Below, one piece after another: positions 12,385 through 52,333 of a DNA stretch of 64,000 nt. Made by a program: the position numbers and the translations under genes. Each line of letters opens with the position of its first letter. Position 1 is the stretch's first letter. Origin of the DNA: Candidatus Latescibacterota bacterium (GTDB lineage: Bacteria; Latescibacterota; UBA2968; GCA-2709665); the NCBI GenBank assembly GCA_963667175.2, contig CAXXXF010000003.1, positions 256,001 to 320,000 of the forward strand, written 5' to 3'. The notes beneath the pieces were generated by a model. That model saw only the letters and a program-made list of their open reading frames with translations, ran no database searches and had not been told where the DNA came from.

Positions 12385-12494
12385 TCCGCGCGTCTGCGCC
12401 GGCAGGCGGGAATCTGTTGCAAAATGCGACAGTTGTGCGTTCGCCCGGATTGTCATCCATGTATCCAAACAGAAAGACGAAAGGAGGAACACCC

Positions 12495-13148
12495 ATGAAA
12501 CACCCGTTGAAATCCATCGTCCTGTGCGGCGTCGCCGCGGCGGTCATGCATTCCGGGCCCGCGCTGAGCCAGACCAAGCTCGGCGTCCGCGCCGGTCTGA
12601 GCCGGGCCACGGCGAGCGGCGTCAAGGTCGTGACGGGCGCGGCGAACGTGACGGCGCGCACCGGCCTTTCCCTCGGCGTTTCCGGGACGCTTCCGCTGCA
12701 GGACAGCTTCAGGCTCCGGGTCGACGGCGCGTACGTGCAGAAAGGGTACGGCGGCATGCTTGGTTGGGGGCGGCTCGAATTCAATCTCGGTTACATCGAG
12801 GTTGCGGGCATGGGCCTTATGGACTTCGCGCCGGACGGCGCGCCGGCCTCCTTCTACGCGCTCGCCGGCCCGTCGTTCGCGGTCAAAACCGGATGTGAAT
12901 ACACTCGGACCGGCGAGGAATCCGGCGAGTTGGAGGCCGGCGGTTCCTGCGGCGAAGACGTCAGGGGCATCGACCTGGGGATTACCGGAGGCGTTGGCGC
13001 GGAGATGCCGTTTTCGGACGACATGACGGTCTCGGCGGAACTGCGCTACACGCTGGGGTTCATGTCGATTCTCAAGGACAGCGACGAGGCCATCAAAAAC
13101 CGAAACCTCGTCCTTCAGATCGGCGTAGGCTTTCCCATTGGCGATTAG
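12495..13148 (+). CDS. Outer membrane beta-barrel (porin / PorT-like family)
   Basis: AAGGAGG RBS, signal peptide, G.RAGL, amphipathic strands, Y.QKG, LRY.LG and terminal aromatic GVGFP. Confidence 0.82.
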   Translation: MKHPLKSIVLCGVAAAVMHSGPALSQTKLGVRAGLSRATASGVKVVTGAANVTARTGLSLGVSGTLPLQDSFRLRVDGAYVQKGYGGMLGWGRLEFNLGYIEVAGMGLMDFAPDGAPASFYALAGPSFAVKTGCEYTRTGEESGELEAGGSCGEDVRGIDLGITGGVGAEMPFSDDMTVSAELRYTLGFMSILKDSDEAIKNRNLVLQIGVGFPIGD

Positions 13149-13152
13149 GACG

Positions 13153-13215: not shown

Positions 13216-13668
13216 ATTTCTGACCCATCGGAGGATGCGCGTCCCCGGAATCGGCGACGGGCGCGACCGGGCCGGCGCTTTCTGCTCGCTCCGGAATTTC
13301 AGCGCCGCCCGGCGCCCCGCCGTCCGCGGGAAAGAGCATTCCCCAGCTTTCAGAAATCACATCCCCCGTCCCGATAAAGGCAGTGGTTAGTGATCAGTGG
13401 TTAGAAAAAGGCGGTGAGACGGCGAAAACATCGGGCGTATATCAATTCGCGGCTGCCTGATTCTATTGTAGGGGCGGCCGGCCGCCCTGCAGACGCAAGG
13501 CCGGTGGGGGGCGCTTATGGAACCGTCCATGCAGGTCAGGTTTTCCGAACGAGCGTAGCGTGACGCAGGATGAAGCGGACAACTATCGCAAAATGCGACA
13601 TTACAAAGACGGCGTTGGCGGCCGATCCGTCCACGGCGTCGGGGCCGCGTTTTCACAAGGAGGCAGCG

Positions 13669-14478
13669 ATGTTGACACGATTTCTGGTATCCGTATGCGC
13701 GGGACTCGTCTGGGCCGCCGCCGCATCGGCCGGCGAACTGACGAGCGGGTTGACCATCCGCGGAGGAAAGAACGCGCTTGCAGGCCTCAAGCTGGAGCGC
13801 GTGAACGACCCCGCCGAAGCCGACGGCACACTCACCATCCGCGTGTCGGTCGCGCGGGCGAAGGACCTGAAGGGGTACGGGTTGTCGCTCGAATACGACG
13901 CGGCGAAGTACGCGTTCGTGGAAGCCAGGGAGGCGGCCGGGAACCTGCTCGCGTCCGGCGCGGGCCGGCAGACGCTGTTTCTCTCGTCGGACCGGACGCC
14001 CGGCAGGGTGGACGTCAGCGCGTTGAAGGTGGACGGCCCGGGCGCCAGCGGCGAGGGCCGGCTGGCGGACCTTGTGTTCAGGACCGGCGGCACGCCCTCG
14101 GCGTCCGACTTCAGGGTCTCGGATGGCGTGCTGGTGGGGCTTGACGGCGCCCTCGACCTGCTGTCGCGCGTCGAGATCGGCAACCTGAAGCCACTGCCGG
14201 ACCGCTTCGGCCTGGACCAGAACGCGCCGAACCCGTTCAATCCCGCCACCGTGATCGGATATCAGCTCGCAGAGGCCGGCTCGGTCAGGCTGGCCGTGTA
14301 CAACCTGTTGGGACAGGAGGTGCGCGTGCTGGTGAACGAGACCATGGCGGCGGGATCCTTCACGGCCGCGTGGGACGGGACGGACGCGCTGGGCCGCGAC
14401 GTGGCCAGCGGCGTGTATCTGTATCGGATTCAGGCCGGGGACTTCTCCGCGTCGCGGCGCATGCTGCTGCTGAAATAG
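13669..14478 (+). CDS. Secreted cohesin-like domain protein with C-terminal FlgD-Ig / T9SS type A-like sorting domain
   Basis: AAGGAGG RBS; signal peptide; cohesin-like pattern LKGYGLSLEYD...GEGRLADLVF; C-terminus F.L.QN.PNPFNP.T.I.Y.L...VYNLLGQEV...WDG.D..G..VASGVYLYRI...MLLLK. Confidence 0.8.
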   Translation: MLTRFLVSVCAGLVWAAAASAGELTSGLTIRGGKNALAGLKLERVNDPAEADGTLTIRVSVARAKDLKGYGLSLEYDAAKYAFVEAREAAGNLLASGAGRQTLFLSSDRTPGRVDVSALKVDGPGASGEGRLADLVFRTGGTPSASDFRVSDGVLVGLDGALDLLSRVEIGNLKPLPDRFGLDQNAPNPFNPATVIGYQLAEAGSVRLAVYNLLGQEVRVLVNETMAAGSFTAAWDGTDALGRDVASGVYLYRIQAGDFSASRRMLLLK

Positions 14479-15520: not shown

Positions 15521-15936
15521 TGCGGCAGGCCAACGAAAACCAGCGTTCGGCGATCAGCCGTCAGCTTGAAGCAAAAGCGAACCAGCCATCCGCCCCGCTG
15601 ACCTCTCCCCCCGGCCCCGTAAAGGCAGTGGTCAGGAAAAGCAGTGGTTAGTGATCAGTGGTTAGAAAAAGGCGGTGAGACGGCGAAAACACCGGGCGTA
15701 TATCAATACGCGGATGCCAGATTTTATCGTAGGGCCGGCCGGCCGGTCGCCCCTACAATTGCAACGCCTGCGCTACGAAGGTCGGTAGCCGTCCGCCTTT
15801 GCCTTTCATCCCGTCCGACCTTGTAAGACCCGTTTTCTGGACGAATCGGGTTACGCAGGCTGAAGTCGACGACTGTCGCAGAATGCGTCACGTCGGTCCC
15901 CAACCTCCCAGGGTGGAAAGGCAGCGGTCAGCGAAA

Positions 15937-16083
15937 GGCGGTGAGACGGTAGACGTGAGAGGTAAGAGATTGCCCGCCTCGTGCGGTTTCATTTCTTGCC
16001 GGAGGCATATAGGAATAAACAATTCGGCAATGACGTCTTCTACCGTCTCCCGTCTCCCGTCTCCCGTCTTACGTCTCACCGCC
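15937..16083. repeat. ~150-bp long inverted-repeat (MITE-like) element, copy 1
   Basis: GGCGGTGAGACGGTAGACGTGAGA ... TCTCCCGTCTTACGTCTCACCGCC with inner stem TTGCCGGA/TTCGGCAA; second copy at 31022-31147. Confidence 0.7.
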
Positions 16084-16385
16084 GTCAGGCGACCTCTCCC
16101 CCCAACCTGCCTGCGCCTGCCTGTCCCGTTGGAGCGGCAGACAGGCCGAGTTCCGCTCGGCAGGCAGGCCCCCTCTCCCAGGGGGAAAAGCAGTGGTCAG
16201 TGGCCGGTGGTCAGTAAAGGCAGCGATCGGCGGTCAGCCGTCAGCTTGAAGCAAAACCAGGACACCTTGAGCGGATCACCGTTCCCCCCTTCTCGTGGGA
16301 AGGGGGAAAGGGGGTAGGTCTGGGAGGCGGTGAAAGGGAGAAAAAAACCAGGGTGTATATCAATTCGCGGCTGCCTGATTCTATT

Positions 16386-16413
16386 GTAGGGGCGACCGGC
16401 CGGTCGCCCCTAC
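16386..16413. repeat. GTAG-type REP palindrome
   Basis: Perfect 28-bp palindrome GTAGGGGCGACCGGCCGGTCGCCCCTAC; variants at 1662, 13468, 15729, 27849, 28030 and 54670. Confidence 0.85.
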
Positions 16414-16506
16414 AGACGCAAGGCCGGTGGGGGGCGTTTTCGCAACCATCCATATAAATTCCGTTTTCTGAATGAGGGTAGCGTTACGCAGGCCGAAGCT
16501 GACAAC

Positions 16507-16523
16507 TGTCGCAAAATGCAACA
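16507..16523. promoter_or_regulatory. Palindromic operator-like site, consensus TGTCGCA-N3-TGCGACA
   Basis: Copies with 1-2 mismatches start at 12415, 13584, 15874, 16507, 28149, 31537 and 36208; all but 15874 lie 60-85 bp upstream of a start codon. Confidence 0.7.
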
Positions 16524-16567
16524 TCTTTCTCGCACGCAAACAGCTCCGCATATAAGAGGATCTTGCC

Positions 16568-19528
16568 ATGAACAGTCGAGGAAAAGTTGCCATCGGGTTG
16601 CTGATCGCGATGGGCGCGGTATTCGCGGGGGTTGGGTCCGTTTCCGCGCAGACCGCTGGGGACGCGGATTTTGACGACAGCGGCGAGGTGGGCTTTCAGG
16701 ACTTCCTGCTGTTTGCGGCGAAGTTCAATACCGCGAGGGGCGACGCCAATTACGACGCCAGGTTCGACCTGGACGACAGCGGCGCGGTGGGGTTTGCGGA
16801 TTTCCTCGCGTTCGCGCGGTTTTTCGGCGAGACTGTGCCCGTGCCTGCGCTGGCGCTGACCGGGATCGCGCCGTCGGAAGGGATGCCCGGAACGCTGATC
16901 GAGCTGGTGGGGCAATTTGACGCCAATACGGCGTATCAGGTGAAATTCGGCACGGTCTTGTTGCCGGTGTTCGCGCAAGACGCGGAGCGGATTACCGCCA
17001 TGGTGCCCGTGTTGGAAAGCGGGTCCGTGCCGGTGCTCGTGGTTGACCCGTCGGGCCGGGAATCTGATCCCATGTCGTTTGAGGTGCTGGCGCTCTCTGA
17101 ACCGCGGATGAACGTCGAGCAGTTGCAACAGACAGTGTCGGACGTCGGGGACGGCATCGGAAACGTGCTGGCGCCGGTGATTGACGCCGGTGTGTTTCCC
17201 AACGACGCGGACGCGGCGTTGTTCAACCAGGAAATGGATAAGCTGAACGCGGCGTGGGACATCCTCGGGCAGCGGATCGCGGCGCTGCCGCCGGAGGACG
17301 CGGCGCTGTTGACGCAACTTCTGGACAACAGCGGCGCGTTGGGGATTCTGGAGGGCCTGGGACAAATCGACTTAAGCGCGTCGAAGGTACCGGCGGAGAG
17401 CAGTTCGACGCATCAGATATTTTTTCGTGTGGATATCGTCAGTGCGCTCTTGGGCTATGCCGCCGACGTGACCATGGCATTGACGATAGCGAACGCGTTC
17501 TTCCCGGAACCGTTGTTCACGAAAGCCATGACCGCCGCACTGGGGGGGTTCAGCACGTTCATCGGTGTGGTGAAATCCGGAATTGACGCGGCCATACCAA
17601 CGGATTTGCAACGCGTCAGCAAAGTAGAGATAAATCCGACGCCGGTGCTGGTGGGGGGCGTATCCGACGTGGCGTTTTACGGGGAGTTCAAGACGGAGAG
17701 TAATTTGCTCGCTGAGCTGGGATCAGAGGGGGTTGGCAAGGGGATGGAAGAGATCGTGAAGGTCTTCATTCTCAGGAAGAAAGGCGAGAAGTTCCTGGAG
17801 GAGTTACAGGAGAACCCGGTGGTGTCCGACGCGGTCGACGAAATTGTCGGCTTTTTCTCGGGCATCCTCTCGAACGTCGGTTTTGGCGTGACGGGGTTGG
17901 AGAACCTCTTTAATAAAGTAGCGCTGCCGCGGGATGACGTGCGATTGGATATGTCGCTGTACCGTCTCAGCGCGCCAAGCATAATAAAGTGGCTAATACC
18001 GCCGTTCCCCGCCGAAGAGATTGACAAGATGTTGCGCGTTCTGGAAAGAGTCGGAATTGACGTGGTTTCCGAATCGGTGGAGGTCGTGGATCGTGACGAC
18101 GACGTGAATGAAGACGTGGCGGTGTATGATCCTGCAAAGGTTCAACTGACGGGAAAGACAGCGGGCGTGATGCGGCTGAAGATGCGGGCATTTCGGTTTG
18201 TGGAGCCGGGAGGCGAGTCGGGTGATGAGCCGGGAGAAGAAAACAGGAGTTTTTGGGGCCGTGTGTGGGATCGCGCGAAGCAAATCGCGGCAATTCCGTT
18301 GGACTTTCTGAAAAACCTTCATCCTATCTTTCGATTTTCCAATTCGATGGAGCGTCTGGATCCAGTGTACGTTGAATTTGCGGTGAAGGAGCCCGGGTCC
18401 GACGTCGAGGGACCCCTCGAGGTCGAGTCGATACGTAGACTGACCAACTTCAACAGTGGCAATGTCAAGGATTACCAATGGTCGCCGGACGGTCGTCATA
18501 TCGCATTCGATCTGGTTTTTTACGACGAACGCATCGAAAGAGACCGAGAGATCTACGTGGTTGGATTGGACGGGAGTAATCCTCGCAACCTGACCAACAG
18601 CGATTCCTTGGACACAGGTCTCGTTTGGTCTCCTGACAGCCGCCACATTGCCTTCTACTCCAACCGGGACGGCAATACGGAGATCTACCTGATAGGATCG
18701 GACGGGAGCGACCTGCGCAACCTGACCAACAATGACGCCCCGGACGGACATCCCTCGTGGTCGCCTGACGGGCGGCACATCGCCTTTACATCCAAACGCG
18801 ACGGCGACGGCGAGATCTACGTGATGCGTTCGGACGGGAGCAGGCTGCGCAACCTGAGGTACCTCCGCCTTAGCTCTGAATTCTCTCCCGTTTGGTCGCC
18901 GGACGGCCGGCACATCGCGTGCTCATCCTATCGCGACCGCAAACACGAGATCCGCGTGATAGGATCGGACGGGAGGAACCAGCGCAGATCGTCAAACAGC
19001 CACTACCCATTGTGGCCATTCTGGTCGCCGGACGGCAGTCATATCGCCTTCGAATTTTACAACGACCGCTCAAGAGATCGCGAGATTCGCATATTGAGAT
19101 TGGACCCGCACAAATGGGTCACAATGTACCAGTTTTCTAATTCGTTTATTCAACTCAGTTGGTCGCCGGACGGTAGTCATATCGCCTTCGTTAACAAAGC
19201 CACGAGAGGCAGCCGGGCGGGAACCTCTAGCATCAACGTAGCGAGATCGGACGGTAGCGGCAGGTTCAACCTGACAGAGAATGCTACCTCGAGAAACCAT
19301 TGGCCCGTCTGGTCGCCCGATGGCCGGCACATCGCATACGTCTCCCGAAGCGGTAGTTACTTTGCGATTCACATGATGAGGTCGGATGGGAGCGACCTGC
19401 GCAGACTGACCAGCTACGTTGCCTACGACCAGAGGCCCTCGTGGTCTCCTGATGGCCGGCACATCGCCTTCGGTTCCGAGCGCGACCGCGATCTCTACCT
19501 GATCACATTTAAGGGCGGCGGACAATAG
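16568..19528 (+). CDS. Array protein A: signal peptide, dockerin-like EF-hand pair, IPT/TIG, helical region, PD40/TolB-like beta-propeller
   Basis: 986 aa; DFDDSGEVGFQDF / DLDDSGAVGFADF repeat; 8 WSPD repeats; ends GGGQ. Confidence 0.9.
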   Translation: MNSRGKVAIGLLIAMGAVFAGVGSVSAQTAGDADFDDSGEVGFQDFLLFAAKFNTARGDANYDARFDLDDSGAVGFADFLAFARFFGETVPVPALALTGIAPSEGMPGTLIELVGQFDANTAYQVKFGTVLLPVFAQDAERITAMVPVLESGSVPVLVVDPSGRESDPMSFEVLALSEPRMNVEQLQQTVSDVGDGIGNVLAPVIDAGVFPNDADAALFNQEMDKLNAAWDILGQRIAALPPEDAALLTQLLDNSGALGILEGLGQIDLSASKVPAESSSTHQIFFRVDIVSALLGYAADVTMALTIANAFFPEPLFTKAMTAALGGFSTFIGVVKSGIDAAIPTDLQRVSKVEINPTPVLVGGVSDVAFYGEFKTESNLLAELGSEGVGKGMEEIVKVFILRKKGEKFLEELQENPVVSDAVDEIVGFFSGILSNVGFGVTGLENLFNKVALPRDDVRLDMSLYRLSAPSIIKWLIPPFPAEEIDKMLRVLERVGIDVVSESVEVVDRDDDVNEDVAVYDPAKVQLTGKTAGVMRLKMRAFRFVEPGGESGDEPGEENRSFWGRVWDRAKQIAAIPLDFLKNLHPIFRFSNSMERLDPVYVEFAVKEPGSDVEGPLEVESIRRLTNFNSGNVKDYQWSPDGRHIAFDLVFYDERIERDREIYVVGLDGSNPRNLTNSDSLDTGLVWSPDSRHIAFYSNRDGNTEIYLIGSDGSDLRNLTNNDAPDGHPSWSPDGRHIAFTSKRDGDGEIYVMRSDGSRLRNLRYLRLSSEFSPVWSPDGRHIACSSYRDRKHEIRVIGSDGRNQRRSSNSHYPLWPFWSPDGSHIAFEFYNDRSRDREIRILRLDPHKWVTMYQFSNSFIQLSWSPDGSHIAFVNKATRGSRAGTSSINVARSDGSGRFNLTENATSRNHWPVWSPDGRHIAYVSRSGSYFAIHMMRSDGSDLRRLTSYVAYDQRPSWSPDGRHIAFGSERDRDLYLITFKGGGQ

Positions 19529-19774
19529 CCGAGAAGCAGAAGGCAGCAATAAGCGGTCAGCATTCAGCCGTCAGCTTGAATCAAGAGTCAAACCTCCCAT
19601 CCGCCCCGCAGACCTCACCCCCCGGCCCCCTCTCCCAGAGGGAGAGGGGGAGCAGACAGCTTAAAGCAAAACCAGGACACCGCGAGCGGATCACCGTTCC
19701 CCCCTTCCCTCCGGGAAGGGGGATAGGGGGTAGGTCGCACGGAAACCGCTCCGCATACAAGAGGAGATCTCGCC

Positions 19775-22700
19775 ATGAACAGTAAAGGAAGATTTGTCAT
19801 CGGGTTGCTGATCGCGATGGGCGCGGTATTCGCGGGGGTTGGGTCCGTTTCCGCGCAGACCGCTGCGGACGCGGATTTCGACGACAGCGGCGAGGTGGGC
19901 TTTCAGGACTTCCTGCTGTTTGCGGCGAAGTTCAATACCGCGAGGGGCGACGCCAATTACGACGCCAGGTTCGACCTGGACGACAGCGGCGCGGTGGGGT
20001 TTGCGGATTTCCTCGCGTTCGCGGGTCTGTTCGGGCAGCCTGCGCCGCGAGGCAAGCCCCCGGTTGCGGACGCGGGAGCGTACCAGAGCGTGGACACGGG
20101 CGACGTGGTCACGCTCGACGGCTCGAACAGCAGCGACCCGGAAGGGCAGCCGCTGACCTTCGCGTGGCGTCAGATCGACGGGCCGCTCGTCGCGCTATCG
20201 GACGCAAGCGTTGCGCGTCCCACGTTTCGCACCGGCCAGGCCGGGCATTATACGTTCGAGCTTATCGTAAACAACGGCGCGGCTGAGAGCCTGCCCGATA
20301 CGGTTGCCGTCGACGCGGCGACGATCTCGGAGGCGGCGGTGTTTGCGGGCGGCCCCGACGCGTCGTTTACGTATAAGGAGACGTCGGGCGATCAGATGGT
20401 CTTTGCGGTGGGGTCGGGCGCGCCCGAGGTGCAGGTGGGCGCGGTGATGGTCAACACCGTGGATCCGTTCTTCCTGAAGAAGGTGACGCGCGTGGTCAGC
20501 CGGGATGCGGCCGAGCTGGTCGTCGAAACCGAAGACGCCGCACTCACCGACGTCGTGGAAGAGGCCTCGGTACGACAGACGCTCACGTTTCCGGATCCGG
20601 CGTCGAAGGTGGCCCTGATCGACCTTGTCAGCGACCCCAGGCAGGTGTGCACGGACGAGACGGAGGCGTTGTGCGCCACGGCTTCGAACATCAGCCTGTC
20701 TCCCAGAATCCATTTCGATATCAATATCGAGGACGGGGGCGTCGATAGCCTTGTCGTTGCGGCCGGGGTCGAGTTCAAGGCCGATTTCGAGTTCCAAATG
20801 GAAGCGGCCGCGGGCTTCAGCCGGGAGCGCGAAGTCGATCTGAAATTGGGTCCATTGGCAGAGAAGCTGAAGGGCGCCCTTAAGTTCGGTCAGAGTCTGT
20901 CCATCCCGGTAAACGTGACGCCCGAACTGGGCTTTGGTGTGAAAGGAAGCATCCAGGTGGCCGGCAAGTTCAAGGCCGGCGTTAACGTCAACAGAACCAT
21001 CAACGTGGGCATCAAGTACAAGGACGGCCAATTCCACAACTTCGGCACGGGGGACGACGGAGACGCGCAGGACGGGATCTCCCCTGAAATCGGCCTGTAC
21101 GGGAGCGTCAATCTGAGCGCCTACGCGTACGGGAGGCTCAACGTCGGGTTGGGCAAAGGCACCGGCAACTGGGAGGCCGGGGTGGGCGCAGTCAGTTTCG
21201 GACTGGTTCCGTACGTGGGATTTGACGCTGAAGCCAGCGCGACGTCCAGCCGGCGGCAACCGACCCTGGATTGGGCAATCAGCATGGGGGTCAACGCGGA
21301 AGTGAGTGTGAACGGCCCTTATGTCAGGTTTTTCAGCTTGTCACTCGAGACGTTTGCCAGAGATTGGGAATTTGCCCTGTTTCAGGTGACCCTCTCGAAT
21401 GGGAACGCGCCCGTGAGGACGGGACCGGTATTGGTGGACCTTAATCTGGAAGGCGTCACGTATCATGGCGGCGATTTATATGCGCTCTATGCGAAGGAAA
21501 ACGGCGGCAGGGTCTACGCGGAGCGACGGAACCCATGTGGTTCATGGGAATATCGGGAGCTGTTTGATCTTGCAACGGTGGAACATCTGACAGATCGAGA
21601 AAAGGAGCTGAACCGGCGTATCTTTTACGCGATGGGGATCGCCTCTGCCAGCCCCGGTCCGAGCACGAAGATCCTATACGTGGTTGGGCTGGACGACATG
21701 CCGGTCGGGGATGGCGTGAATAGCGTCCCGAGGCTGTATAAATACCAGAATCACAGGACGGAACAGGGATGGGAGGGATGGAAACAGGCTAACGTCTACC
21801 ATTTGTCCGAAGAAAATGGGTTCCCTGTGGGTATCGCCTACGATAACGAAGGGCACTTCTATGTCGTTGACCGCGAGACAAAAAAGGTCCACGTGTATTC
21901 GGAATCCGCAAAGGACGGCATGAACCTCACGTCGGTCAGGACCTTCGATCTGGACTCCGGGAATGGCATTCCGTACGGCATCGTGTACGGCGAAGACCGA
22001 ATCTACGTGGTGGATCGCGCCGGCGACAAGGTCTTTGCATACGCCCGTTCCGGCGAGCGCGTAACGGGCGCGGACTTCAGTCTGGATGACGACAACGGCG
22101 ATCCGTCCGGTATCGCGTATGCCAACGGCGGCTTCTACGTGGCGGATTCCGAAGACGGGATATTCTATGAATACGCGGGTACGGTGACAGTACTTTCAGT
22201 ACGCAGACTGACGAACAACGACGCCGGGGACAGTGGTCCCCAGTGGTCGCCTGACGGCCGGCAGATCGCCTTCAATACCGACCGCGACGACGGCAATTCT
22301 GAGATCTACGTGATGGAATCGGACGGGAGCGACCCGCGCAACCTGACCAACAATGACGCTTCGGACTTTCATCCCTCGTGGTCGCCTGACGGCCGTCAGA
22401 TCGCGTTCACCTCCTATCGCGACGGCGATTCTGAGATCTACGTGATGGGATCGGACGGGAGCGACCCGCGCAACCTGACCAACAACCACAGCGACGACGA
22501 CGAACCTTTTCCGGGGTGGTCTTCGGACGTTAATCCCTGGTGGTCTCCCGATGGCCGACAGATCGCCTTCAGATCCAGACGCACAGTTTTTGGCTATTAT
22601 GATCGCCGGCACCGGCCCTGGAATGTCTGGGTGATGGAATCGGACGGGAGCAACCCGCGCAGTATTTCCTATAACATTACACTGTGGGCCAACAGTTCAG

Positions 22701-23236
22701 GTTGGCCTTACCCCTGGTCGCCTGACGGCCGGCTTCTCGCGTTCACCGACAAAGACGACGAGCACGGCCATATCTACGTGACTGATTCGTATGGGAGCTT
22801 TCGCCGCGCACTGAACGGCGGCGCCTCCGTTCACGCCAGTAACTCTCATCCCTCGTGGTCGCCTGACGGCCGTTATATCGCCTTCCATTCCGACGATTGG
22901 GTGTACAGAGAAGGGGTGGAAATCTACGTGATTGGGCCGGATGGTCGCAACCCGTGCAACCTGACCAACAACAGCAGGAGGGCCTACGAACGCGATCCCT
23001 CGTGGTCGCCTGACGGCCGGTATATCGCGTTCACCTCCTATGGCGACGGCAACAGCGAGATCTACGTGATGGGATCGGACGGGAGCGACCCGCGCAACCT
23101 GACCAACAATGACGGTAATGACGGGTACCCCGTCTGGTCTCCCGATGGCCGGCGGATCGCGTTCATCTCCGATCGCGACGGCAACGTCGAGATCTACGTG
23201 ATCGATCTGCAGATCGTCAACGCAGGCGGGCAATAG
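19775..23236 (+). CDS. Array protein B: signal peptide, dockerin-like, PKD-like, beta-rich region, NHL-like propeller, PD40 propeller
   Basis: 1153 aa; same N-terminus as A, then PVADAG...TLDGSNSSDPEG.PLTFAWRQ (PKD-like); GIAY..G.FYVVD repeats; 7 WSPDG repeats. Confidence 0.9.
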   Translation: MNSKGRFVIGLLIAMGAVFAGVGSVSAQTAADADFDDSGEVGFQDFLLFAAKFNTARGDANYDARFDLDDSGAVGFADFLAFAGLFGQPAPRGKPPVADAGAYQSVDTGDVVTLDGSNSSDPEGQPLTFAWRQIDGPLVALSDASVARPTFRTGQAGHYTFELIVNNGAAESLPDTVAVDAATISEAAVFAGGPDASFTYKETSGDQMVFAVGSGAPEVQVGAVMVNTVDPFFLKKVTRVVSRDAAELVVETEDAALTDVVEEASVRQTLTFPDPASKVALIDLVSDPRQVCTDETEALCATASNISLSPRIHFDINIEDGGVDSLVVAAGVEFKADFEFQMEAAAGFSREREVDLKLGPLAEKLKGALKFGQSLSIPVNVTPELGFGVKGSIQVAGKFKAGVNVNRTINVGIKYKDGQFHNFGTGDDGDAQDGISPEIGLYGSVNLSAYAYGRLNVGLGKGTGNWEAGVGAVSFGLVPYVGFDAEASATSSRRQPTLDWAISMGVNAEVSVNGPYVRFFSLSLETFARDWEFALFQVTLSNGNAPVRTGPVLVDLNLEGVTYHGGDLYALYAKENGGRVYAERRNPCGSWEYRELFDLATVEHLTDREKELNRRIFYAMGIASASPGPSTKILYVVGLDDMPVGDGVNSVPRLYKYQNHRTEQGWEGWKQANVYHLSEENGFPVGIAYDNEGHFYVVDRETKKVHVYSESAKDGMNLTSVRTFDLDSGNGIPYGIVYGEDRIYVVDRAGDKVFAYARSGERVTGADFSLDDDNGDPSGIAYANGGFYVADSEDGIFYEYAGTVTVLSVRRLTNNDAGDSGPQWSPDGRQIAFNTDRDDGNSEIYVMESDGSDPRNLTNNDASDFHPSWSPDGRQIAFTSYRDGDSEIYVMGSDGSDPRNLTNNHSDDDEPFPGWSSDVNPWWSPDGRQIAFRSRRTVFGYYDRRHRPWNVWVMESDGSNPRSISYNITLWANSSGWPYPWSPDGRLLAFTDKDDEHGHIYVTDSYGSFRRALNGGASVHASNSHPSWSPDGRYIAFHSDDWVYREGVEIYVIGPDGRNPCNLTNNSRRAYERDPSWSPDGRYIAFTSYGDGNSEIYVMGSDGSDPRNLTNNDGNDGYPVWSPDGRRIAFISDRDGNVEIYVIDLQIVNAGGQ

Positions 23237-34600: not shown

Positions 34601-35788
34601 GGTCAGCGTGACGCGTCTGCAGACTTCGCGGTGAGTGACAGTGCGCTCACCGGGATTACGTATGCCAACGACCGATTCTTTGTCGTTCATGCCTCGGATG
34701 ATAAGGTCTATGCGTACACGGGATCGGGGCAGCGTGACGCGGATTCAGACTTCGAGCTGGATGGCGACTTTTCGCCGTTTGGTCTCACGTATGCCAACGA
34801 TCGATTCTATGTCGCAAAAAAGCGGTGGGACAGTCGTCGTGGGAATGTGACGGTCTATGCGTACACGAGTTCGGGGCAACGTGACCCGGATTCAGACTTC
34901 ACGCCGAGGCATTGGAGTATTTCCCCTTTTCTTGGAGGTCTCACGTATGCCAATGGCCGATTCTACGTCATCACGACCATCGACAGGTATGGGCGTGGCT
35001 CTAGAGATTTTTCGGGAGCCGGCAGTTGGAGTGCCGAAGTGTTCGGAACTTCAGGAGGTTCGTTCTTTCTGGATATTAACGATGATCCAGTGAGTATCGC
35101 GTATGGCAACAATCGATTCAACGTCTTAGAATCCGTAGGAAAAGTCTATACGTACAAGAGTTCGGGGCAGCGTGACCCGGATTCAGATTTCGAGTTGATC
35201 GATAGCCATTCGGGCATGACGCATGCCAACAATCGATTCTACGTCGTCACCCGTGACGACAGGGGCCGCGGTTTTGCGTACGTATACACGAGTTCGGGCG
35301 AGCGTGACGAGGCTTCAGATTTCAAACTGTCTCATGGCGGGTTTTCTAGTATCACGTATGCTAGTATCACGTATGCCGACAACCGATTCTACGTCGTCGG
35401 TTAGCCTGATTCGGATGGCAACAGACGGTATGGTACGTATACGCGTTCCGGAGAGGTTCTTGAAGTGGATCCGGACACCGATCTGGCAAGAAAGATGGCC
35501 CGCATTTCGGGGAGAATCGCTTATGGAAACAACCGATTCTACGTTGCGGATGCCGCCGGAGGCAAGATCTACGCGTACGCGAGTTCTGGTGAGCGTGACG
35601 AGGCTTCAGACATCGATGTGATTGGTACTCCTTCCTGCATGACGTATGCCAACAACCGACTATACGTTGTCGTTTCGCGTACTCGTCAACGTCGCCTTCC
35701 TCAACTTGCTCCCGGCGATGGTTTCCCTCAACTCAGCGCAGATTATCGCTATGATGTCGTCGAGGTGCACACGCTTTCCGGGAAGTAG
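31601..35788 (+). CDS. Array protein E: paralog of C, interrupted by one in-frame TAG at 35402-35404 (truncated allele or readthrough)
   Basis: ORFs 31601-35404 and 35465-35788 are in the same frame; sequence after the TAG continues the same repeats and ends TLSGK* like TLSGQ* of C. Confidence 0.82.
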
Positions 35789-36271: not shown

Positions 36272-39200
36272 ATGAACAAGAAGGCAGGATTTGTCATCGG
36301 GTTGCTGATAACGATGGGCGTTGTCTTCGCGGGCGCCGGGTCCGTTTCCGCGCAGACCGCTACGGACGCGGATTTTGACGACAGCGGCGACGTCGGGTTT
36401 GGGGACTTCGTGCTGTTTGCCGCGAAGTTCGGGCTGAGCCAGGGCGACGCCAATTACGACGCCAGATTCGACCTCGACGACAGCGGCGACGTGGGGTTCG
36501 CGGACTTTGTCGCGTTCGCGCGGTTATTCGGCGAGACCGTGCCCCTGCCCCCGCTGGCGCTGACCGGGATCGCGCCTGCGGAAGGGATGCCCGGAACGCT
36601 GATCGAACTTGTGGGGCAATTTGACGCCGATACGGCGTATCAGGTAAAATTCGGGACGGTCTTGTTGCCGGTGGACGCGCAAGACGCGGAGCGGATGACC
36701 GCCATGGTACCCGTGTTGGAAAGCGGGTCCGTGCAAGTGCGCGTGGTCGAGGCGTCGGGCCGGGAATCCGAGCCGACGTCGTTTCGGGTGCTGGCCCTGC
36801 CGGCGCCGCGGATGAACGCCGAGCAGTTGCGGCAGACCGTTGCGGACGTGGGGAAAGGCATCGGGAACGCGTTTGTGCCGTTGACGGGCGCCGGCGAGGT
36901 TTTCAACGCGGCGGACGCGGCGCTGTTCAACCGGGAGATGGGCAAGCTGAACGCGACGTGGGGCGTCATCGGGGAGCGGATCGCGGCGCTGCCGCCGGAG
37001 GAGGCGGCTTTGTTGTCGAACCTTCTGGACAACAGCGGCGCCCTGGGGATTCTGGAGGGCCTGGGAAAAATCGACCTGAGCGCGTCGAAGGTGGCAGCGG
37101 ACGCCGACGTTCTGTTGCATCACCTGTTTTATCAGCTGGATCTGATCAGCTTTGCGCTGGGCAACGTCACGGCCGTCCTTGACGTGGTGACCGTCGTCAG
37201 CGCGGTTGCCGCCGTGACCGGGGTCGGGACGCTTGTGTCGGGTCTGTCGGCGGTCACCAGCATCACCCTCTCTTTGACGCAAGTTGCGATAAACTCGTTC
37301 ATTCCAACGGACTTGAAAGAGCTTGAGGTGGAAATAGCGCAGACCCCGGTGCCGGAGAGGGGCCGGTCCGACGTCGCGTTTTTCGGGGTCTTCAAGACGG
37401 AGAATGACGCGGGGGTGGGCGGGGTGGCGAGCGTGACGTTAAATGCGGCCATCAGCAAACTATTGGAAAAGTACATCAAGTCGGAGGAGATGGCGGATGA
37501 GGCGGCGCATGCCATTGAAAATTACGTCAGAGGCGTCTACTCGCAGGTCTTTGGGGATGCGGTAGGTAGTCTCGTGAAGATTGAGTTGTCGGATCTGGAT
37601 TCCGAGCTTCGCGTGCGGTTGGATATGGGGATCTACCGCAAAGGTCTGTTGGACACCATCTTTGATGTCGTGCCGGTGATCGGGACCGCAATAGGCTCGT
37701 TGCTGGAAAAGCTCGGCATTGACCCGACGTATCATGAACCGGTGACGGTTCAGGATACGGACGTGGCGACGTATCAACCGAGGACGGATCAACTTGAGGG
37801 GATCAAAGCGGGCAAGACACTGCTGACGGTGCGGGCGTACCGGTTCGAGGAGTACGCGATTACCGTTGTTATTCCCTTTACGGATCACACGGTTACGTTG
37901 GCCAGTATCTGGAAACCGGCGGGGGTGGCGACGCAGGCGCCGTTTGAAGTGACCCGATCGTTCAACTTTCAGGGGATCGCCCATGATGATAGGGACGGCG
38001 ATTTCTATACGCTTCACGCGGCCGAAGGGCGTGGCGGCGGCGTCTGGGGCGCGCACAAGAAGCCGGATGGTTCCTGGGAGTATAACGAGCTTTTCAACCT
38101 GTCAACCGTTGGACATTTAACCGGATCTCAGAGGGAGCAGGACAGGCGTGTTTCGTTGCCGCTTGGCATCACGTTCGGCAGCACGGGTCAGTCTAACCGG
38201 CAGCTGTACGTGGTTGGGATGGAGACCGTCGGGGAAGGGGAGGCCGCGAAATACGTCGCGGCGCTGTTTAATTATATGAGCACCAGGGATAACCCCAGTG
38301 ACAAGTGGGGCGAATGGCAGCAGAGAGCCGTCTATACGCTGCCCGGTGAAAACGTCGCGCCGTTTGGCGTCGCCTTTGTCAACGGCCACTTTCACGTGGT
38401 GGACGCGGAGGCATTGCGGGTCTACGCGTATACCGCGTCCGGTTCGGGCTTGAACCTGCAGCGTGACAGGACCTTCAATCTGGTTTCGGACAATGGTTTT
38501 CCCGGAGGCATCACGTACGCCGACGGGCGCTTCTACGTGGTGGACCTGGAGGACGAAAGGATCTACGCGTACGCGCGCTCCGGAGATTCGTGGGCGCATG
38601 ACGCCTTGTCAGATTTCAAACTGGACAACGACAACAGCCATCCGAGCGGTATCACGGTTGCCAACGGCCTGCTCCACGTGGTCAACTCGGGCGACGGGAA
38701 GATCCACGAGTACGGACCGAATCCGGTTGTGGAATCGCTTGCGGCCGACGACAGCACCCTGACCACGGGAAGGACGCTCACGCTGCGGGCCGTGATTCGC
38801 AACCGGGGCATTGCGGCGGGGCCTTCGGGCACGTTGCGGGTTTACCGACGCACCCATACACGAATGGCGGGTACCGAGTGGTGGAATCCTGGACGTGCGA
38901 TGGAAATCGCCACGAACGACTTCAACGGTCTCAAGCCGGGAGAAGCAAGGGCCCAAACGATCGACCTGGGGGCGCCGAAAGAAGGGAGGTACGATTACTA
39001 CGCGTGCGTGACGGACGACGAAGGCGCGGATCGCAATTGCTCGAAGGAGGTGGGCGTGTCGGTTGTGTTCGGCGGCGCGCCGGCGCCCGAGGGCGTTGCG
39101 GTCTATCGTCTGGACCCTGACAACGGTCTTCCGGCGGGTGTCACCTCTGCCGAGGGCGAATTCTACGTGGTGGACGCGGATTCCACGGTCTACGCGTATG

Positions 39201-40771
39201 ACTCCAGCTGGAACCGGGCTTCGAGTTCAGACTTCAAACTGACCGCCGCCAACGGTTTCCCGGAAGGGATCGCCGCTGCCGCCGGCCGATTCTACGTGGT
39301 TGACCGGGGCAGTCCTCGCGTTGCAAACAACAAGGTCTTCGTGTATGCCGGTTCCGGAACGTCGGCGTCTCAGGGCTTTTCGTTGCGGACGGGCGCCCCG
39401 CCGCGGGGTGTGGTCTATGCCGATGGGCGGTTCCGCGTGGTTCATTCGGACCGGAGAGCGCTCGTCTCCGCTTTTGCGTACGATTCCGGCGGGTTTCGGA
39501 ACCTGTCCGATGAATTCCCGCTCGAAGAAGACAACGACGCTCCGGCGGGCATCGCCTACGCCGACGGCCTCTTCTTCGTGGTTGACAGCGAGTTTGAGAA
39601 AGTCTACGCGTACGACGGTTCCGGGATGCACAAGCCGACGCTGGACTTCGCGCTGCATTCCTCGAATGCCGACCCGTCCGGTATCGCGTACGCCAACAAC
39701 CGGTTCTACGTGGTCGACGCGAGGGACTCGCTGGTCTACAGGTATCCGAAGCCCGAAAAGCCGGACCTGACTGTGGAATCGCTCGTAGCCAGCGCCGACA
39801 CGCTGGCCCCGGGGGAGGCCTTCACGCTGATCGCGACGGTGAAGAACGTCGGAAACGCGGCCTCGGACGCGACGACGCTGCGCGGTTCCGCTGGCGGCGG
39901 GGAATTCGTGGTCGAGTCGATACGCAGACTGACCAACCGCAGTTATGGCGAAATCGACCCCGCGTGGTCTCCCGATGGTCGGCACATCGCCTTCGCATAC
40001 GAACCGGCCGACGGCAGCATTTCCTCGAACCGCCACAAACTCTACGTGATGGAATCGGACGGAAGCAATCCACGCATCCTGACAAACGACCCTGCGGGGT
40101 CCATCCAACCCGCGTGGTCGCCCGATGGCCGGCGCATCGCCTTCGCATCCAATCGCGACGGCAACTGGGATATCTACGTGATGGAATCGGACGGAAGCAA
40201 TCCACGAAACCTCACAAACTACGTTGCCGGACGCGAAGAGTACCCCGCGTGGTCTCCCGATGGCCGGCACATCGCCTTCGCATCCAATCGCGACGACAAC
40301 AATGATATCTACGTGATGGAATCGGACGGAAGCAATCCACGAAACCTCACAAACAACGCGAACGCTACCGGAGACTCCCGTTCGTATATACCCGCGTGGT
40401 CTCCCGATGGCCGGCACATCGCCTTCGAATCCTGGCGCGACGGCAACTATGATATCTACGTGATGGAATCGGACGGAAGCAATCCACGAAACCTCACAAA
40501 CGACCGCAGTGCGGGGTACCGGGACCCCGCGTGGTCGCCCGATGGCCGGCACATTGCCTTCGTATCCTATAGCGACGCCTACGGCTTTGATATCTCCGTG
40601 ATGGGATCGGATGGAAGCAATCCACGCAACCTGACAAACACAAACAGCTGGACCGAAATCGAAGTGTCGCCCACGTGGTCTCCCGATGGCCGGCACATCG
40701 CCTTCGACAAACGGAGCAACGGCTCTGCTTCCGCTATCTACGTGATCACGTTTCAGCGCGGCGGGCAATAG
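36272..40771 (+). CDS. Array protein F: signal peptide, dockerin-like, IPT/TIG, helical region, NHL-like propellers, CARDB, truncated CARDB, PD40 propeller
   Basis: 1499 aa; mosaic of modules seen in B, C and A/D; ends RGGQ. Confidence 0.9.
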   Translation: MNKKAGFVIGLLITMGVVFAGAGSVSAQTATDADFDDSGDVGFGDFVLFAAKFGLSQGDANYDARFDLDDSGDVGFADFVAFARLFGETVPLPPLALTGIAPAEGMPGTLIELVGQFDADTAYQVKFGTVLLPVDAQDAERMTAMVPVLESGSVQVRVVEASGRESEPTSFRVLALPAPRMNAEQLRQTVADVGKGIGNAFVPLTGAGEVFNAADAALFNREMGKLNATWGVIGERIAALPPEEAALLSNLLDNSGALGILEGLGKIDLSASKVAADADVLLHHLFYQLDLISFALGNVTAVLDVVTVVSAVAAVTGVGTLVSGLSAVTSITLSLTQVAINSFIPTDLKELEVEIAQTPVPERGRSDVAFFGVFKTENDAGVGGVASVTLNAAISKLLEKYIKSEEMADEAAHAIENYVRGVYSQVFGDAVGSLVKIELSDLDSELRVRLDMGIYRKGLLDTIFDVVPVIGTAIGSLLEKLGIDPTYHEPVTVQDTDVATYQPRTDQLEGIKAGKTLLTVRAYRFEEYAITVVIPFTDHTVTLASIWKPAGVATQAPFEVTRSFNFQGIAHDDRDGDFYTLHAAEGRGGGVWGAHKKPDGSWEYNELFNLSTVGHLTGSQREQDRRVSLPLGITFGSTGQSNRQLYVVGMETVGEGEAAKYVAALFNYMSTRDNPSDKWGEWQQRAVYTLPGENVAPFGVAFVNGHFHVVDAEALRVYAYTASGSGLNLQRDRTFNLVSDNGFPGGITYADGRFYVVDLEDERIYAYARSGDSWAHDALSDFKLDNDNSHPSGITVANGLLHVVNSGDGKIHEYGPNPVVESLAADDSTLTTGRTLTLRAVIRNRGIAAGPSGTLRVYRRTHTRMAGTEWWNPGRAMEIATNDFNGLKPGEARAQTIDLGAPKEGRYDYYACVTDDEGADRNCSKEVGVSVVFGGAPAPEGVAVYRLDPDNGLPAGVTSAEGEFYVVDADSTVYAYDSSWNRASSSDFKLTAANGFPEGIAAAAGRFYVVDRGSPRVANNKVFVYAGSGTSASQGFSLRTGAPPRGVVYADGRFRVVHSDRRALVSAFAYDSGGFRNLSDEFPLEEDNDAPAGIAYADGLFFVVDSEFEKVYAYDGSGMHKPTLDFALHSSNADPSGIAYANNRFYVVDARDSLVYRYPKPEKPDLTVESLVASADTLAPGEAFTLIATVKNVGNAASDATTLRGSAGGGEFVVESIRRLTNRSYGEIDPAWSPDGRHIAFAYEPADGSISSNRHKLYVMESDGSNPRILTNDPAGSIQPAWSPDGRRIAFASNRDGNWDIYVMESDGSNPRNLTNYVAGREEYPAWSPDGRHIAFASNRDDNNDIYVMESDGSNPRNLTNNANATGDSRSYIPAWSPDGRHIAFESWRDGNYDIYVMESDGSNPRNLTNDRSAGYRDPAWSPDGRHIAFVSYSDAYGFDISVMGSDGSNPRNLTNTNSWTEIEVSPTWSPDGRHIAFDKRSNGSASAIYVITFQRGGQ

Positions 40772-41127
40772 CCGCGAAGCAGGGTGAAAATCATCCGGGG
40801 AAAGGCAGTGGTCAGAAAAAGCAGCAATCAGCGGTCAGCATTCAGCCATCAGTTTGAAGCAAAAGCGAACCACCCACCCGCCCCGCAGACCTCTCCCCCC
40901 GTCCCCCTCTCCCAGGGGGAGACGGGGAGAACAGCAGGCGTTTCGCCATCAAGAGACTTCGCCTGTGGTTTGTGCATCAATCGAAGCGCGTTCGGCTGGC
41001 GACAGTTCCCCCCTTCCCCCCGGGAAGGGGGATAGGTCTGGGAGGCGTTGAGACGGGAGAGGACTGCACCGCTGAGATCGGATAACGAAATGGCATGGCG
41101 ATGTCAATTTATGGAGACAATAACGCA

Positions 41128-42675
41128 ATGACCCTCCCCAAACGCGTCACGAGTCTTGTCGTTCTCGCCCTCGCGGCGTCGATCTGCATGCCGTCTTTCG
41201 CGTCGCGCGTGACGGGGGTGTTTTCGGGGGCGTCGCTTCAGGTGGATGCCAGAGTCGAGAGTACGCCGCAAAACGACGCGGTGCGGACCTTGCCGCCGCC
41301 GCAAGCGGGCGATACCGTCTCGTTTCAGTTGTTCGCGGCCGCCGCCGCCGGACAGTCGACCAACGGCTACGTGATCGAACTCGATCTGCCGGGCCGGACG
41401 TTTTCGAGCGATATCGGAACCCTTTGGGGCGTGGACTGGAACGGCGACGCGCTGGTGAGCGCGGGGCCGGCCGGGTTGTCCGCGCTGTTCCTCTCCCCGG
41501 CGACGGCGCCGTCCACGGGGTATCTGGGTCAGATCAACGTGCCCGTGACAACCGCCCTCGACTCTGGCGACGTCCTCAGGGTCAAGCGCATGACGATGAC
41601 CAGCGGGAACGACCTGGATCAACTGGACGTGTCCGCGGCGGCGATCGCCTTTTCGACCGGCGGCAATCCCGGCGATTTCGACAACGACGGAACGGTGGGC
41701 CTTTCGGATTTCCTGATGTTTGTGAGAGTCTTCGGGACGTCCTCGTCGGACGCGGGATTTGACGGCAGGATGGACTTCGACGACGACGGGACGGTGGACC
41801 TGACGGATTTTGAGGCGTTTGTGAAGGTTTTCGGCACGACGTACGCGCGCGACGACCGGCCCCTCGCGGGCGGGTCGATACGCAGGCTGACCAACCATAC
41901 CGCGGACGACCGGGCGCCCGCCTGGTCGCCCGACGGTCGGTACGTCATCTTCACGTCCAACCGTGACGACAACGACCAGATCTACGTGATGGAAGCGGAC
42001 GGGAGCGATCCGCGCCGGCTGACCCGCCACGATGCCTACGACGCCGAACCCGCCTGGTCGCCGGACGGCCGGCACATCGTCTTCATGTCCGACCGCGACG
42101 GCCACGCCGATATCTACGTAATGGGGGCGGATGGGAGCGACCCGCGCAGGTTGACCCGCCACGATGCCTATGACGCCGAACCCGCCTGGTCGCCGGACGG
42201 CCGGCGCATCGCCTTCATGTCCGACCGGGACGGCCACGCCGATATCTACGTGATGGGGGCGGACGGGAGCGACCCGCGCCGGCTGACCCGCGACGATGCC
42301 TACGATTCTCAACCCGCCTGGTCGCCGGACGGCAGGCACATCGCCTTCACGTCCGACCGCGACGATTACTTCGACGTCTACGTGATGGGGGCGGACGGGA
42401 GCGATCCGCGCCGGCTGACCCGAAACGAGGCCTACGACTCTCAACCCGCCTGGTCGCCCGACGGCCGGCGTATCGCCTTCGTTTCGGATCGCGACGGCAA
42501 CGACGAGATCTACGTGATGGAGGCGGACGGGAGCGACCCGCGACGGCTGACCGACGTCGAGGCGCTTGACGTGAGTCCCGCCTGGTCGCCCGATGGTCGC
42601 CGCATCGCCTACTCCTCCTTGTCGGACAGCGATTGGGAGATCTACGTAATCGCGCTTCAGGACGGAGGGCCGTAA
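41128..42675 (+). CDS. Array protein G: signal peptide, beta-sandwich (possibly cohesin-like), dockerin-like pair, PD40 propeller
   Basis: GGAG RBS then ATG 41128; GDFDNDGTVGLSDF / DFDDDGTVDLTDF; 6 near-identical 44-aa PAWSPDG repeats. Confidence 0.85.
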   Translation: MTLPKRVTSLVVLALAASICMPSFASRVTGVFSGASLQVDARVESTPQNDAVRTLPPPQAGDTVSFQLFAAAAAGQSTNGYVIELDLPGRTFSSDIGTLWGVDWNGDALVSAGPAGLSALFLSPATAPSTGYLGQINVPVTTALDSGDVLRVKRMTMTSGNDLDQLDVSAAAIAFSTGGNPGDFDNDGTVGLSDFLMFVRVFGTSSSDAGFDGRMDFDDDGTVDLTDFEAFVKVFGTTYARDDRPLAGGSIRRLTNHTADDRAPAWSPDGRYVIFTSNRDDNDQIYVMEADGSDPRRLTRHDAYDAEPAWSPDGRHIVFMSDRDGHADIYVMGADGSDPRRLTRHDAYDAEPAWSPDGRRIAFMSDRDGHADIYVMGADGSDPRRLTRDDAYDSQPAWSPDGRHIAFTSDRDDYFDVYVMGADGSDPRRLTRNEAYDSQPAWSPDGRRIAFVSDRDGNDEIYVMEADGSDPRRLTDVEALDVSPAWSPDGRRIAYSSLSDSDWEIYVIALQDGGP

Positions 42676-51831: not shown

Positions 51832-51836
51832 AGCCG

Positions 51837-52310: not shown

Positions 52311-52333
52311 GTTGCAACCCTTTCTCGTTTCGA

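Follow-up and report, generated by a model that had tools for sequence, protein, structure and literature searches.

We analysed a 64,000-nucleotide stretch of DNA from a Candidatus Latescibacterota bacterium (G000:C3:256001-320000, hereafter the window; source genome of 5.5 Mb, 95% complete). In it, seven long plus-strand genes, the array, run from 16568 to 42675 and each encode a signal peptide and one duplicated calcium-loop repeat of dockerin type; ahead of them, a small gene at 13669 encodes a cohesin joined to a C-terminal domain (CTD) of the T9SS (type IX secretion system). The window probably represents a single cargo cluster within a non-cellulosomal cohesin-dockerin display system that extends across the order and relies on type IX secretion. 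The 13669 product is best read, from its domains and their distribution, as a detachable T9SS tag that also anchors dockerin-bearing cargo at the surface and possibly takes part in its export: dozens of Sec-exported proteins would bear a type II-like dockerin instead of a T9SS signal of their own, and the minimal cohesin-CTD protein would supply the signal in trans. The comparative evidence points to a real, conserved system, broader than an earlier account of this DNA (the preliminary description) had held and less tied to adhesion, with the minimal, repeatedly duplicated adaptor for a large dockerin proteome as its distinctive element. The idea in that description of a small adaptor for interchangeable propeller heads gains from the cohesin fold and from the linked distribution of the two modules; its confinement to this locus and to propellers did not hold. 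The genes concerned are:

13669..14478 (+), stand-alone adaptor: 269 aa; signal peptide, cohesin (13774-14196), T9SS type A CTD (14200-14475)
16568..19528 (+), cargo 1: 986 aa; signal peptide, dockerin (16661-16843), TIG, helical domain, PD40/TolB-type propeller
19775..23236 (+), cargo 2: 1153 aa; signal peptide, dockerin, PKD, unique middle region, NHL-type repeats, PD40 propeller
23635..27693 (+), cargo 3: 1352 aa; signal peptide, dockerin, TIG, helical domain, NHL-type repeats, CARDB, NHL-type repeats
28213..30927 (+), cargo 4: 904 aa; signal peptide, dockerin, TIG, helical domain, PD40 propeller
31601..35788 (+), cargo 5: signal peptide, dockerin, TIG, helical domain, NHL-like repeats, CARDB, NHL-like repeats
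36272..40771 (+), cargo 6: 1499 aa; signal peptide, dockerin, TIG, helical domain, NHL-like repeats, CARDB, PD40 propeller
41095..42675 (+), cargo 7: 526 aa; signal peptide, CohB domain (41221-41655), internal dockerin, PD40 propeller

The adaptor had been described as a cohesin-like domain followed by a FlgD-Ig/T9SS-type sorting domain, and this architecture stands: a hydrophobic N-terminus, read by eye as a signal peptide, precedes a cohesin (aa ~36-176) and a FlgD-Ig/T9SS CTD (aa ~178-269). The AlphaFold2 model, based on an alignment of 55 sequences, comprises two β-sandwiches (predicted local distance difference test, pLDDT, 82.5). The cohesin fold proposed for the protein was borne out by structural comparison, the 18 best of 48,161 Protein Data Bank (PDB) chains all being cohesin entries (Z 10.5-14.0, best root-mean-square deviation 3.0 over 131 residues), and Foldseek agrees. 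Residues 178-269 match the PorU CTD with a Z of 10.3, and TIGR04183 scores 32.4 bits on the protein, against a cut-off of 23. A PDB sequence search with 13669 returned FlgD chains only. The cohesin model PF00963 exceeds its cut-off on a paralogue (C15:819888, 30.1 bits) and on a fused form (C15:372910, 40.5 bits), and is precomputed on 14 of 120 listed homologues of 13669. Close homologues carry the source labels Gemmatimonadota or Candidatus Latescibacteria.

The duplicated calcium-binding repeat claimed for the array is present in all seven proteins. Six of them carry the quoted form, DFDDSGEVGFQDF...DLDDSG.VGFADF, at the mature N-terminus; the exception, 41095, has an internal, divergent repeat (aa ~194 and ~227) behind an extra ~145-aa domain that had been missed. 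Across 36 such domains of the source genome, the alignment shows a duplicated ~22-residue calcium loop plus helix (DxDxDG.V...D) with a short linker. A profile of these domains finds as its best matches the dockerin chains 2y3n_B (8.6e-13), 4wi0_B (5.6e-11) and 4u3s_B (1.6e-10), and calmodulin/calcineurin EF-hands at 3.8e-7 and weaker. Entry titles place 2y3n, 5k39 and 2b59 in type II complexes, and the 4wi0 and 4u3s dockerin chains come from type II complexes too. The array dockerins, for which a type I comparison had been proposed, are thus closest to type II by their nearest solved chains; within the window the type I model PF00404 reaches its cut-off only on 41095. Because the helix positions are Phe-rich and near-invariant genome-wide, the sequences suggest that the dockerins of this genome form one specificity class. 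Three other proteins of the genome (G000 C6:253469, C6:569813 and C6:576138) end in a single half-dockerin repeat.

As claimed, the array proteins lack a sorting domain: none of the seven matches the CTD profile, Pfam FlgD_ig or TIGR04183. Their C-terminal parts consist of PD40/TolB-type propellers, in five proteins, and of NHL-type repeats that have CARDB or PKD domains as spacers, and no catalytic domain exceeds its cut-off in any of the seven (Pfam and TIGR models). TolB itself is not matched by the five PD40 proteins, on which TIGR02800 reaches 207-299 bits against a cut-off of 343 and covers the propeller part alone. Judged by these domains, the propeller proteins of the window are most likely binding heads displayed via the adaptor. 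In 31601, an in-frame TAG at 35402-35404, either a nonsense change or a read error, ends the open reading frame (ORF) at 1267 aa, while the frame and its repeats run on to 35788.

Beyond the window, the two modules are numerous and almost strictly separate. In the source genome, 48 ORFs encode a dockerin and 14 a CTD, with no ORF in both sets and one frameshifted cargo-dockerin/cohesin-CTD pair as the sole link between them; 35 of the 48 dockerin ORFs pass a crude signal-peptide filter. We scanned 38 of the 41 dockerin ORFs outside the window against Pfam, leaving out three close paralogues. They include two S8 peptidases, one M10 peptidase, two heparinase II/III-like and four FGE-sulfatase-like proteins, together with HmuY, Cache, WD40, LRR, NHL and FG-GAP domains, and 17 of the 38 have no Pfam match at 1e-5. 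The description of the system as propellers instead of enzymes therefore applies inside the window and fails genome-wide, where 5 of the 38 others have peptidase or heparinase-like domains. By Pfam, no glycoside hydrolase family occurs among the seven window proteins and these 38.

Three stand-alone cohesin-CTD genes occur in the source genome: 13669 in the window, C16:305993 and C15:819225. The cohesin of 13669 is 60-61% identical to those of its two paralogues. The core copy (G000:C16:305993-306838) lies 60 kb from the nearest dockerin; the window adaptor is an extra copy, 2.1 kb from the first cargo gene. The same cohesin family also occurs in fused form. In the large protein of the locus G000:C15:370988-377681 (L004), dockerin, cohesin and CTD follow the cargo, the gene being split by a frameshift in a G run, and a paralogue at a distance of 5 kb stops immediately behind its own dockerin. 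Across 40 relative loci, 9 of 60 dockerin ORFs carry a CTD, and all nine are intact cargo-dockerin-cohesin-CTD proteins with a dockerin-cohesin linker of 16-20 aa. Stand-alone and fused cohesins form separate clades (support 100/100). Two further cohesin-like families, CohB and CohC, stand directly before dockerins; CohC reaches the PF00963 cut-off once. The CohB domain of 41095 (41221-41655) is, as a second-family cohesin-like domain, a lead only, with an Atlas lead of 0.88, PF00963 on 13% of members and an hhalign value of 61% to CohC; hhalign gave no match between CohB and CohA, the adaptor-type cohesin. No multi-cohesin primary scaffoldin was found, each cohesin-family ORF in the genome having one full cohesin, although more divergent cohesins could escape this search.

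The distribution of the two modules across genomes links them. Of 121 genomes of the phylum, 105 encode dockerins and 93 the adaptor-type cohesin. The independent distribution that the preliminary description had named as telling against a pair was not observed: all 93 cohesin-positive genomes have dockerins, and the cohesin is absent from all 16 dockerin-negative genomes. The 14 and 16 genomes of the two main genera have from 44 to more than 51 dockerins per genome, the scoring being capped at 51 candidates. The minimal adaptor is mainly a feature of the order, since outside it 7 of 137 cohesin hits lie in frames <350 aa (44 of 51 cohesin-positive genomes searched).

Gene neighbourhoods give a finer picture. 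The first 33 adaptor loci were partly chosen after dockerin hits nearby, and 19 more were added against this bias (52 in total). The neighbourhood count was made on 22 same-order genomes in at most five contigs and comprised 49 stand-alone copies among the best 150 matches, 216 weaker ones lying outside; L053, L054 and L067, from more fragmented genomes, were left out. Core and extra copies were told apart by shared housekeeping neighbours (mreB-, purN- and hemA-like, by eye), independently of dockerins. Among the matches listed, every one of the 22 genomes has exactly one core copy in the conserved housekeeping neighbourhood, and a dockerin ORF lies within about 10 kb of 4 of the 22 core copies, compared with all 27 extra copies. 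The background for such proximity in the source genome is 14%, near the core-copy rate. Nearby dockerin ORFs are co-oriented with the adaptor in 67 of 72 cases, against 266 of 363 for other conserved genes, and in 16 of the first 33 loci the adaptor lies within 300 bp of a dockerin gene. The tree has extra adaptor copies arising in each of the two families, and the branches in f2 are very short; we therefore see repeated recent duplication of adaptors. The core adaptor would serve the whole dockerin proteome, and expanding cargo clusters would acquire an adaptor of their own, here with a copied upstream region.

Several points weigh against a display system of this kind. Its support is entirely comparative; the genomes are related, so that the counts are not independent and kinship inflates co-occurrence, and both profiles were built from the source genome and lose sensitivity with distance. 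Twelve of the 105 dockerin-positive genomes (1-9 dockerins each) have no cohesin match. PF00963 stays under threshold on 13669 itself, PF00404 matches are mostly weak (31 of 36 domains at E<=0.05), and EF-hand models match 34 of the 36. A palindrome upstream of the adaptor, described below, is missing before three of the seven array genes, and most of its sites are in other parts of the genome. Cargo of 900-1500 aa would need passage through SprA while attached non-covalently. Lastly, the other cohesin-type domains (the fused large protein, CohB and CohC) could be the true dockerin partners.

This last point leads to the strongest alternative, in which the dockerins bind those other cohesins or act as stand-alone calcium-binding anchor tags, the adaptor recognises some other ligand, and its gene is found next to dockerin genes because both gather in secreted-protein gene islands. 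The coexistence of several cohesin-type families in the genome, the EF-hand matches, the separation of fused and stand-alone clades and the weak match of the NCBIfam 'GC-type dockerin domain-anchored protein' model to 41095 (23 bits, cut-off 29) are all in keeping with it. It accounts less well for the extra adaptors, which in 27 of 27 listed cases stand beside dockerin genes and arose by repeated recent duplication in two families, and for the fused proteins, nine of nine of which join the same cohesin family covalently to a dockerin. We regard this alternative, including its account of the neighbourhood, as unlikely.

The export machinery bears on a second alternative. The source genome encodes SprA, a PorU-like C25 protein with a CTD and four PorV-like matches over cut-off; SprA occurs in 113 of the 121 phylum genomes, and adaptor and dockerin genes adjoin porU in six genomes of the genus. 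The adaptor has both marks of a type A substrate, an N-terminal signal peptide and a C-terminal type A CTD. Neither a secretin nor T2SSF was found in the source genome by searches that were positive in control genomes, and secretins are absent from the two main genera (0 of 14 and 0 of 16 genomes) and present in 6 of 41 genomes of the order; the search was for secretin and T2SSF only, with autotransporter, two-partner and type I secretion system (T1SS) routes outside its scope. It is improbable, somewhat more so than the use of other partners, that adaptor and cargo bind in the periplasm or are released to the medium, with a FlgD-type domain that is not a functional export or anchor signal and a T9SS that may be reduced. 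GldM and PorP/SprF were unmatched in the genome, a weak argument in favour as control genomes gave no match either; for PorZ there was no full-length match, the model meeting CTD parts only; and our literature search found no experimental T9SS study for the phylum. Set against this are the SprA, PorV-like and PorU-like genes, the adjacency of adaptor clusters to porU, and cargo such as polymer-degrading enzymes and a HmuY-family protein, which make more sense outside the cell.

The version least likely to hold is a locus-specific adhesin or host-interaction scaffold in which the adaptor serves the seven non-catalytic propeller proteins alone: a long upstream block restricted to the window locus, the lack of catalytic domains over cut-off and a helical middle domain found in 2 of 41 genomes of the order suit it, but 41 other dockerin ORFs share the conserved positions (S8 and M10 peptidases and heparinase II/III-like proteins included), the syntenic core adaptor is present in 22 of 22 genomes among the matches listed, and the adaptor cohesin is closely related to its two paralogues.

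We therefore return to the adaptor as a T9SS tag for dockerin cargo, which can be set out in four steps. For the first, the sequences supply the parts: predicted signal peptides on cargo and adaptor, the type A CTD of the adaptor, and genes for SprA, PorV-like and PorU proteins. In the second, the dockerin would bind the adaptor cohesin with Ca2+, one cargo per adaptor and with little selectivity, since a single Phe-rich helix pattern is common to the genome's dockerins. A predicted complex of the cohesin (aa 34-177), the 16568 dockerin and two calcium ions scored 0.05 against a mark of 0.32, which speaks neither for nor against this binding. In Bacteroidota, T9SS substrates are anchored at the surface after removal of the CTD. 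By analogy, in the third step the adaptor would pass SprA/PorV, lose its CTD and stay on the surface. In the fourth and least certain step, binding would take place in the periplasm and the cargo would be co-exported as a hitchhiker; we give this step about half the credence of the display model as a whole. The missing secretin and the cargo clusters that gained their own adaptor appear to favour co-export, with one adaptor per cargo. Tentatively, then, the dockerin could be a general export and display tag in the order, the cohesin-CTD protein capturing cargo in the periplasm, taking it through SprA non-covalently and holding it on the surface. On this possible but less than even reading, about 50 to over 100 unrelated proteins per genome would use the T9SS without a CTD of their own; such cargo might comprise enzymes and WD40/LRR/NHL/PD40 repeat proteins. 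The minimal adaptor would, on the same reading, derive from the splitting of an older cargo-dockerin-cohesin-CTD tail.

The system has partial counterparts. A CTD-anchored cohesin complex was predicted in 'Ca. Stygibacter' (Cloacimonadota; Williams et al. 2021, PMC8542988). In the accessible text of that paper, a diderm-type lineage likewise has signal-peptide dockerin proteins, including an S8 peptidase, and a cohesin protein with a conserved CTD for surface attachment. The Stygibacter system, a prediction only, has one 3,755-aa scaffoldin with tandem cohesins and carbohydrate-binding modules and few dockerin enzymes; the one described here has a monovalent cohesin-CTD protein of 269 aa, about 50 or more dockerin proteins in each genome, most of them not glycosidases, adaptors that duplicate inside cargo clusters, and fused cargo-dockerin-cohesin-CTD forms. 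Single-cohesin anchoring scaffoldins of Clostridia (classes in the portion consulted of PMC11557425) resemble the adaptor in combining one cohesin with a surface-sorting module, in fold and in their type II-like partner dockerin; those compared were the C. thermocellum SdbA type II cohesin (2bm3), OlpA/OlpC (3ul4/4dh2) and R. flavefaciens ScaE (2zf9). They are anchored by SLH or LPxTG, whereas here the anchor is a T9SS CTD and an outer membrane lies between cargo and anchor, so that export must be solved. A cellulosome was considered and rejected, as there is neither a multi-cohesin scaffoldin among the cohesin families found in the genome nor cellulase or glycosidase cargo among the Pfam matches.

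The T9SS moves folded proteins and needs a folded CTD (PMC9251779 and PMC10994853, in the parts accessible to us). Like type A substrates of Bacteroidota, the adaptor has a Sec signal and a folded C-terminal domain, in a genome with SprA, PorV-like and PorU homologues. Those substrates need the CTD in cis, according to the same parts of PMC10994853 and PMC9251779; here 47 of 48 dockerin proteins have none, and a signal in trans is proposed. Hitchhiker co-translocation by the twin-arginine translocation (Tat) pathway, in which subunits without a signal cross the membrane bound to a signal-bearing partner (PMC4273604, in excerpt), is similar in principle; it concerns the inner membrane and fixed enzyme subunits, whereas the present proposal concerns the outer membrane and a generic tag on unrelated cargo. 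In Chlorobium chlorochromatii, the adjacent, co-expressed genes Cag_2037/Cag_2038 are proposed, in the available text of a preprint (bioRxiv 10.64898/2026.03.19.712371), to encode a cohesin-dockerin pair that tethers a secreted protein on a diderm surface. That is one giant pair with a proposed T1SS and the cohesin on the cargo, unlike the CTD adaptor and genome-wide dockerin set found here.

Latescibacterota genomes are rich in NHL, WD40 and LRR repeat proteins (PMC12993501), and the main text of that report, as far as it was available, makes no mention of cohesin, dockerin or secretion. The accessible text of PMC4454575 likewise contains no occurrence of 'cohesin', 'dock' or 'cellulosom'. 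Our literature search, limited to titles and abstracts and few subscription papers, with supplements outside its scope, returned no cohesin-dockerin modules in Latescibacterota and no CTD-less co-export by a T9SS. If true, the display model would give these repeat proteins a route to the surface, extend the T9SS from a signal in cis to a split, interchangeable one, and change secretome prediction for uncultured FCB-group bacteria, given 14 CTD against 48 dockerin proteins here. The two modules are short, at 140 and 65 aa, and lend themselves to tests in vitro and in Flavobacterium johnsoniae. Should they work as a pair, they would form a new orthogonal cohesin-dockerin class and could serve as a plug-in surface display tool for Gram-negative cells.

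The regions upstream of the adaptor and array genes share repeated elements:

13409..13601 (+), upstream block of 13669: dispersed palindromic repeat and 17-bp palindrome at 13584-13600
16325..16524 (+), upstream block of 16568: palindrome at 16507-16523
15670..15890 (+), orphan partial copy of block and palindrome: palindrome at 15874, no clear gene behind
12415..12431 (+), palindrome copy upstream of the β-barrel gene: 17 bp, 1 mismatch

A common block of ~220 bp had been claimed for 13669 and the array genes. It is found before 16568 (200 nt, 82%, E 8e-54), 28213 (170 nt, 76%), 31601 and 36272 (about 100 nt each) and, as two short pieces, 23635; 19775 and 41095 gave no match. As the long match is restricted to the window locus, we conclude that this adaptor copy acquired the upstream region of the cargo genes; the ~30-nt palindromic repeat contained in it occurs on at least eight other contigs. 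The palindrome, TGTCGCA-N3-TGCGACA, precedes 12495 and 13669, as described, and four of the seven array genes, 16568 (16507), 28213 (28149), 31601 (31537) and 36272 (36208, 2 mismatches); it is absent before 19775, 23635 and 41095. Genome-wide there are 24 sites with at most one mismatch, mostly intergenic, compared with 4 in one triplet shuffle, and 6 of the 24 lie in the window. Of the 18 others, a single site is no more than 700 bp from the start of a dockerin or CTD ORF, which rules out a cohesin-dockerin regulon. The sites probably belong to a regulator with a wider regulon, and we take their 7-3-7 layout to resemble Fis/NtrC-type operator sites. The spacers at 13340-13560, 15560-16400, 19530-19740, 35800-36120 and 40800-41090 are mosaics of short dispersed palindromic repeats similar to repetitive extragenic palindromic (REP) elements, one 30-nt element recurring on C2, C4, C8, C10, C14, C15, C16 and C18; such repeats may promote array duplications.

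Five array proteins (16568, 23635, 28213, 31601 and 36272) have in common a TIG domain and a mostly helical domain of ~380 aa. In 16568 (17090-18247) its model is mostly helical with a hydrophobic helical hairpin (pLDDT 78.6; predicted template modelling score, pTM, 0.79). The domain is rare: a search of 1.84 billion proteins yielded 31 representatives at E<=0.001. Homologues carry it ahead of PD40, LRR, WD40, vWA, FGE-like or fn3 domains, and heads are therefore swapped on a common stalk. It had no usable Atlas match, and fold searches matched the TIG part alone, barely covering the rest. Its hydropathy peaks, of 1.5-2.1, are insufficient for naming it a membrane-inserting domain. An ASK(V/A) motif, similar to the lysine motif of the fused proteins described below, follows the first helical bundle in the five proteins (16568: aa ~270). 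Three homologues of the array stalk, P0132, P0137 and P0145, have an inverted layout: their FlgD/CTD-like domain lies close to the N-terminus (aa ~36-177), and a type I-like dockerin comes after it.

The fused proteins show features of their own. L004 and L068-L074 have a conserved gene pair, present in 7 of 7 fetched loci, in which a 1,250-2,050-aa cargo-dockerin-cohesin-CTD protein is followed by a 500-730-aa CTD protein, the latter with a CohB-type N-terminus in two. The large cargo has no Pfam match, and the fused protein is a candidate for the main surface-layer protein. Each of the nine fused linkers (L068-L074; G000:C15:372568 start) has a lysine set in a small-small-K-hydrophobic context, such as GSKLA, ATKPL or AGKSL. 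We speculate that this motif could be a processing site; if cut, the fused cargo would be held through the dockerin-cohesin contact alone.

A second tandem array, at G000:C4:356858-371808 (L022), encodes five FGE-sulfatase-like proteins with N-terminal, short-linker dockerins; its contig, C4, has no adaptor-type cohesin. Secreted Cache-like proteins (G000:C18:135703-141608, C15:548891 and C15:814870) end in a CTD or a dockerin, C15:814870 combining Cache with dockerin, hinting that the two may be interchangeable tags on Cache-type cargo.

The remaining genes of the window that we annotated flank the adaptor and the array:

12495..13148 (+), β-barrel gene: small outer-membrane β-barrel, PF13568/PF13505, single copy
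14936-15520, 194-aa signal-peptide protein: Gly/Ala-rich hydrophobic stretch, C-terminal Phe, matches no family

These two were rejected as fixed parts of the system, each having a homologue near the adaptor in 1 of 52 relative loci (L093 for 14936). Downstream of the array, 42707-45895 encodes a large GNAT protein, and two minus-strand genes for TPR and GWxTD-domain proteins (45957-52337 and 52334-54334) lie behind genes for a zf-HC2 anti-sigma factor and an extracytoplasmic function (ECF) sigma factor.

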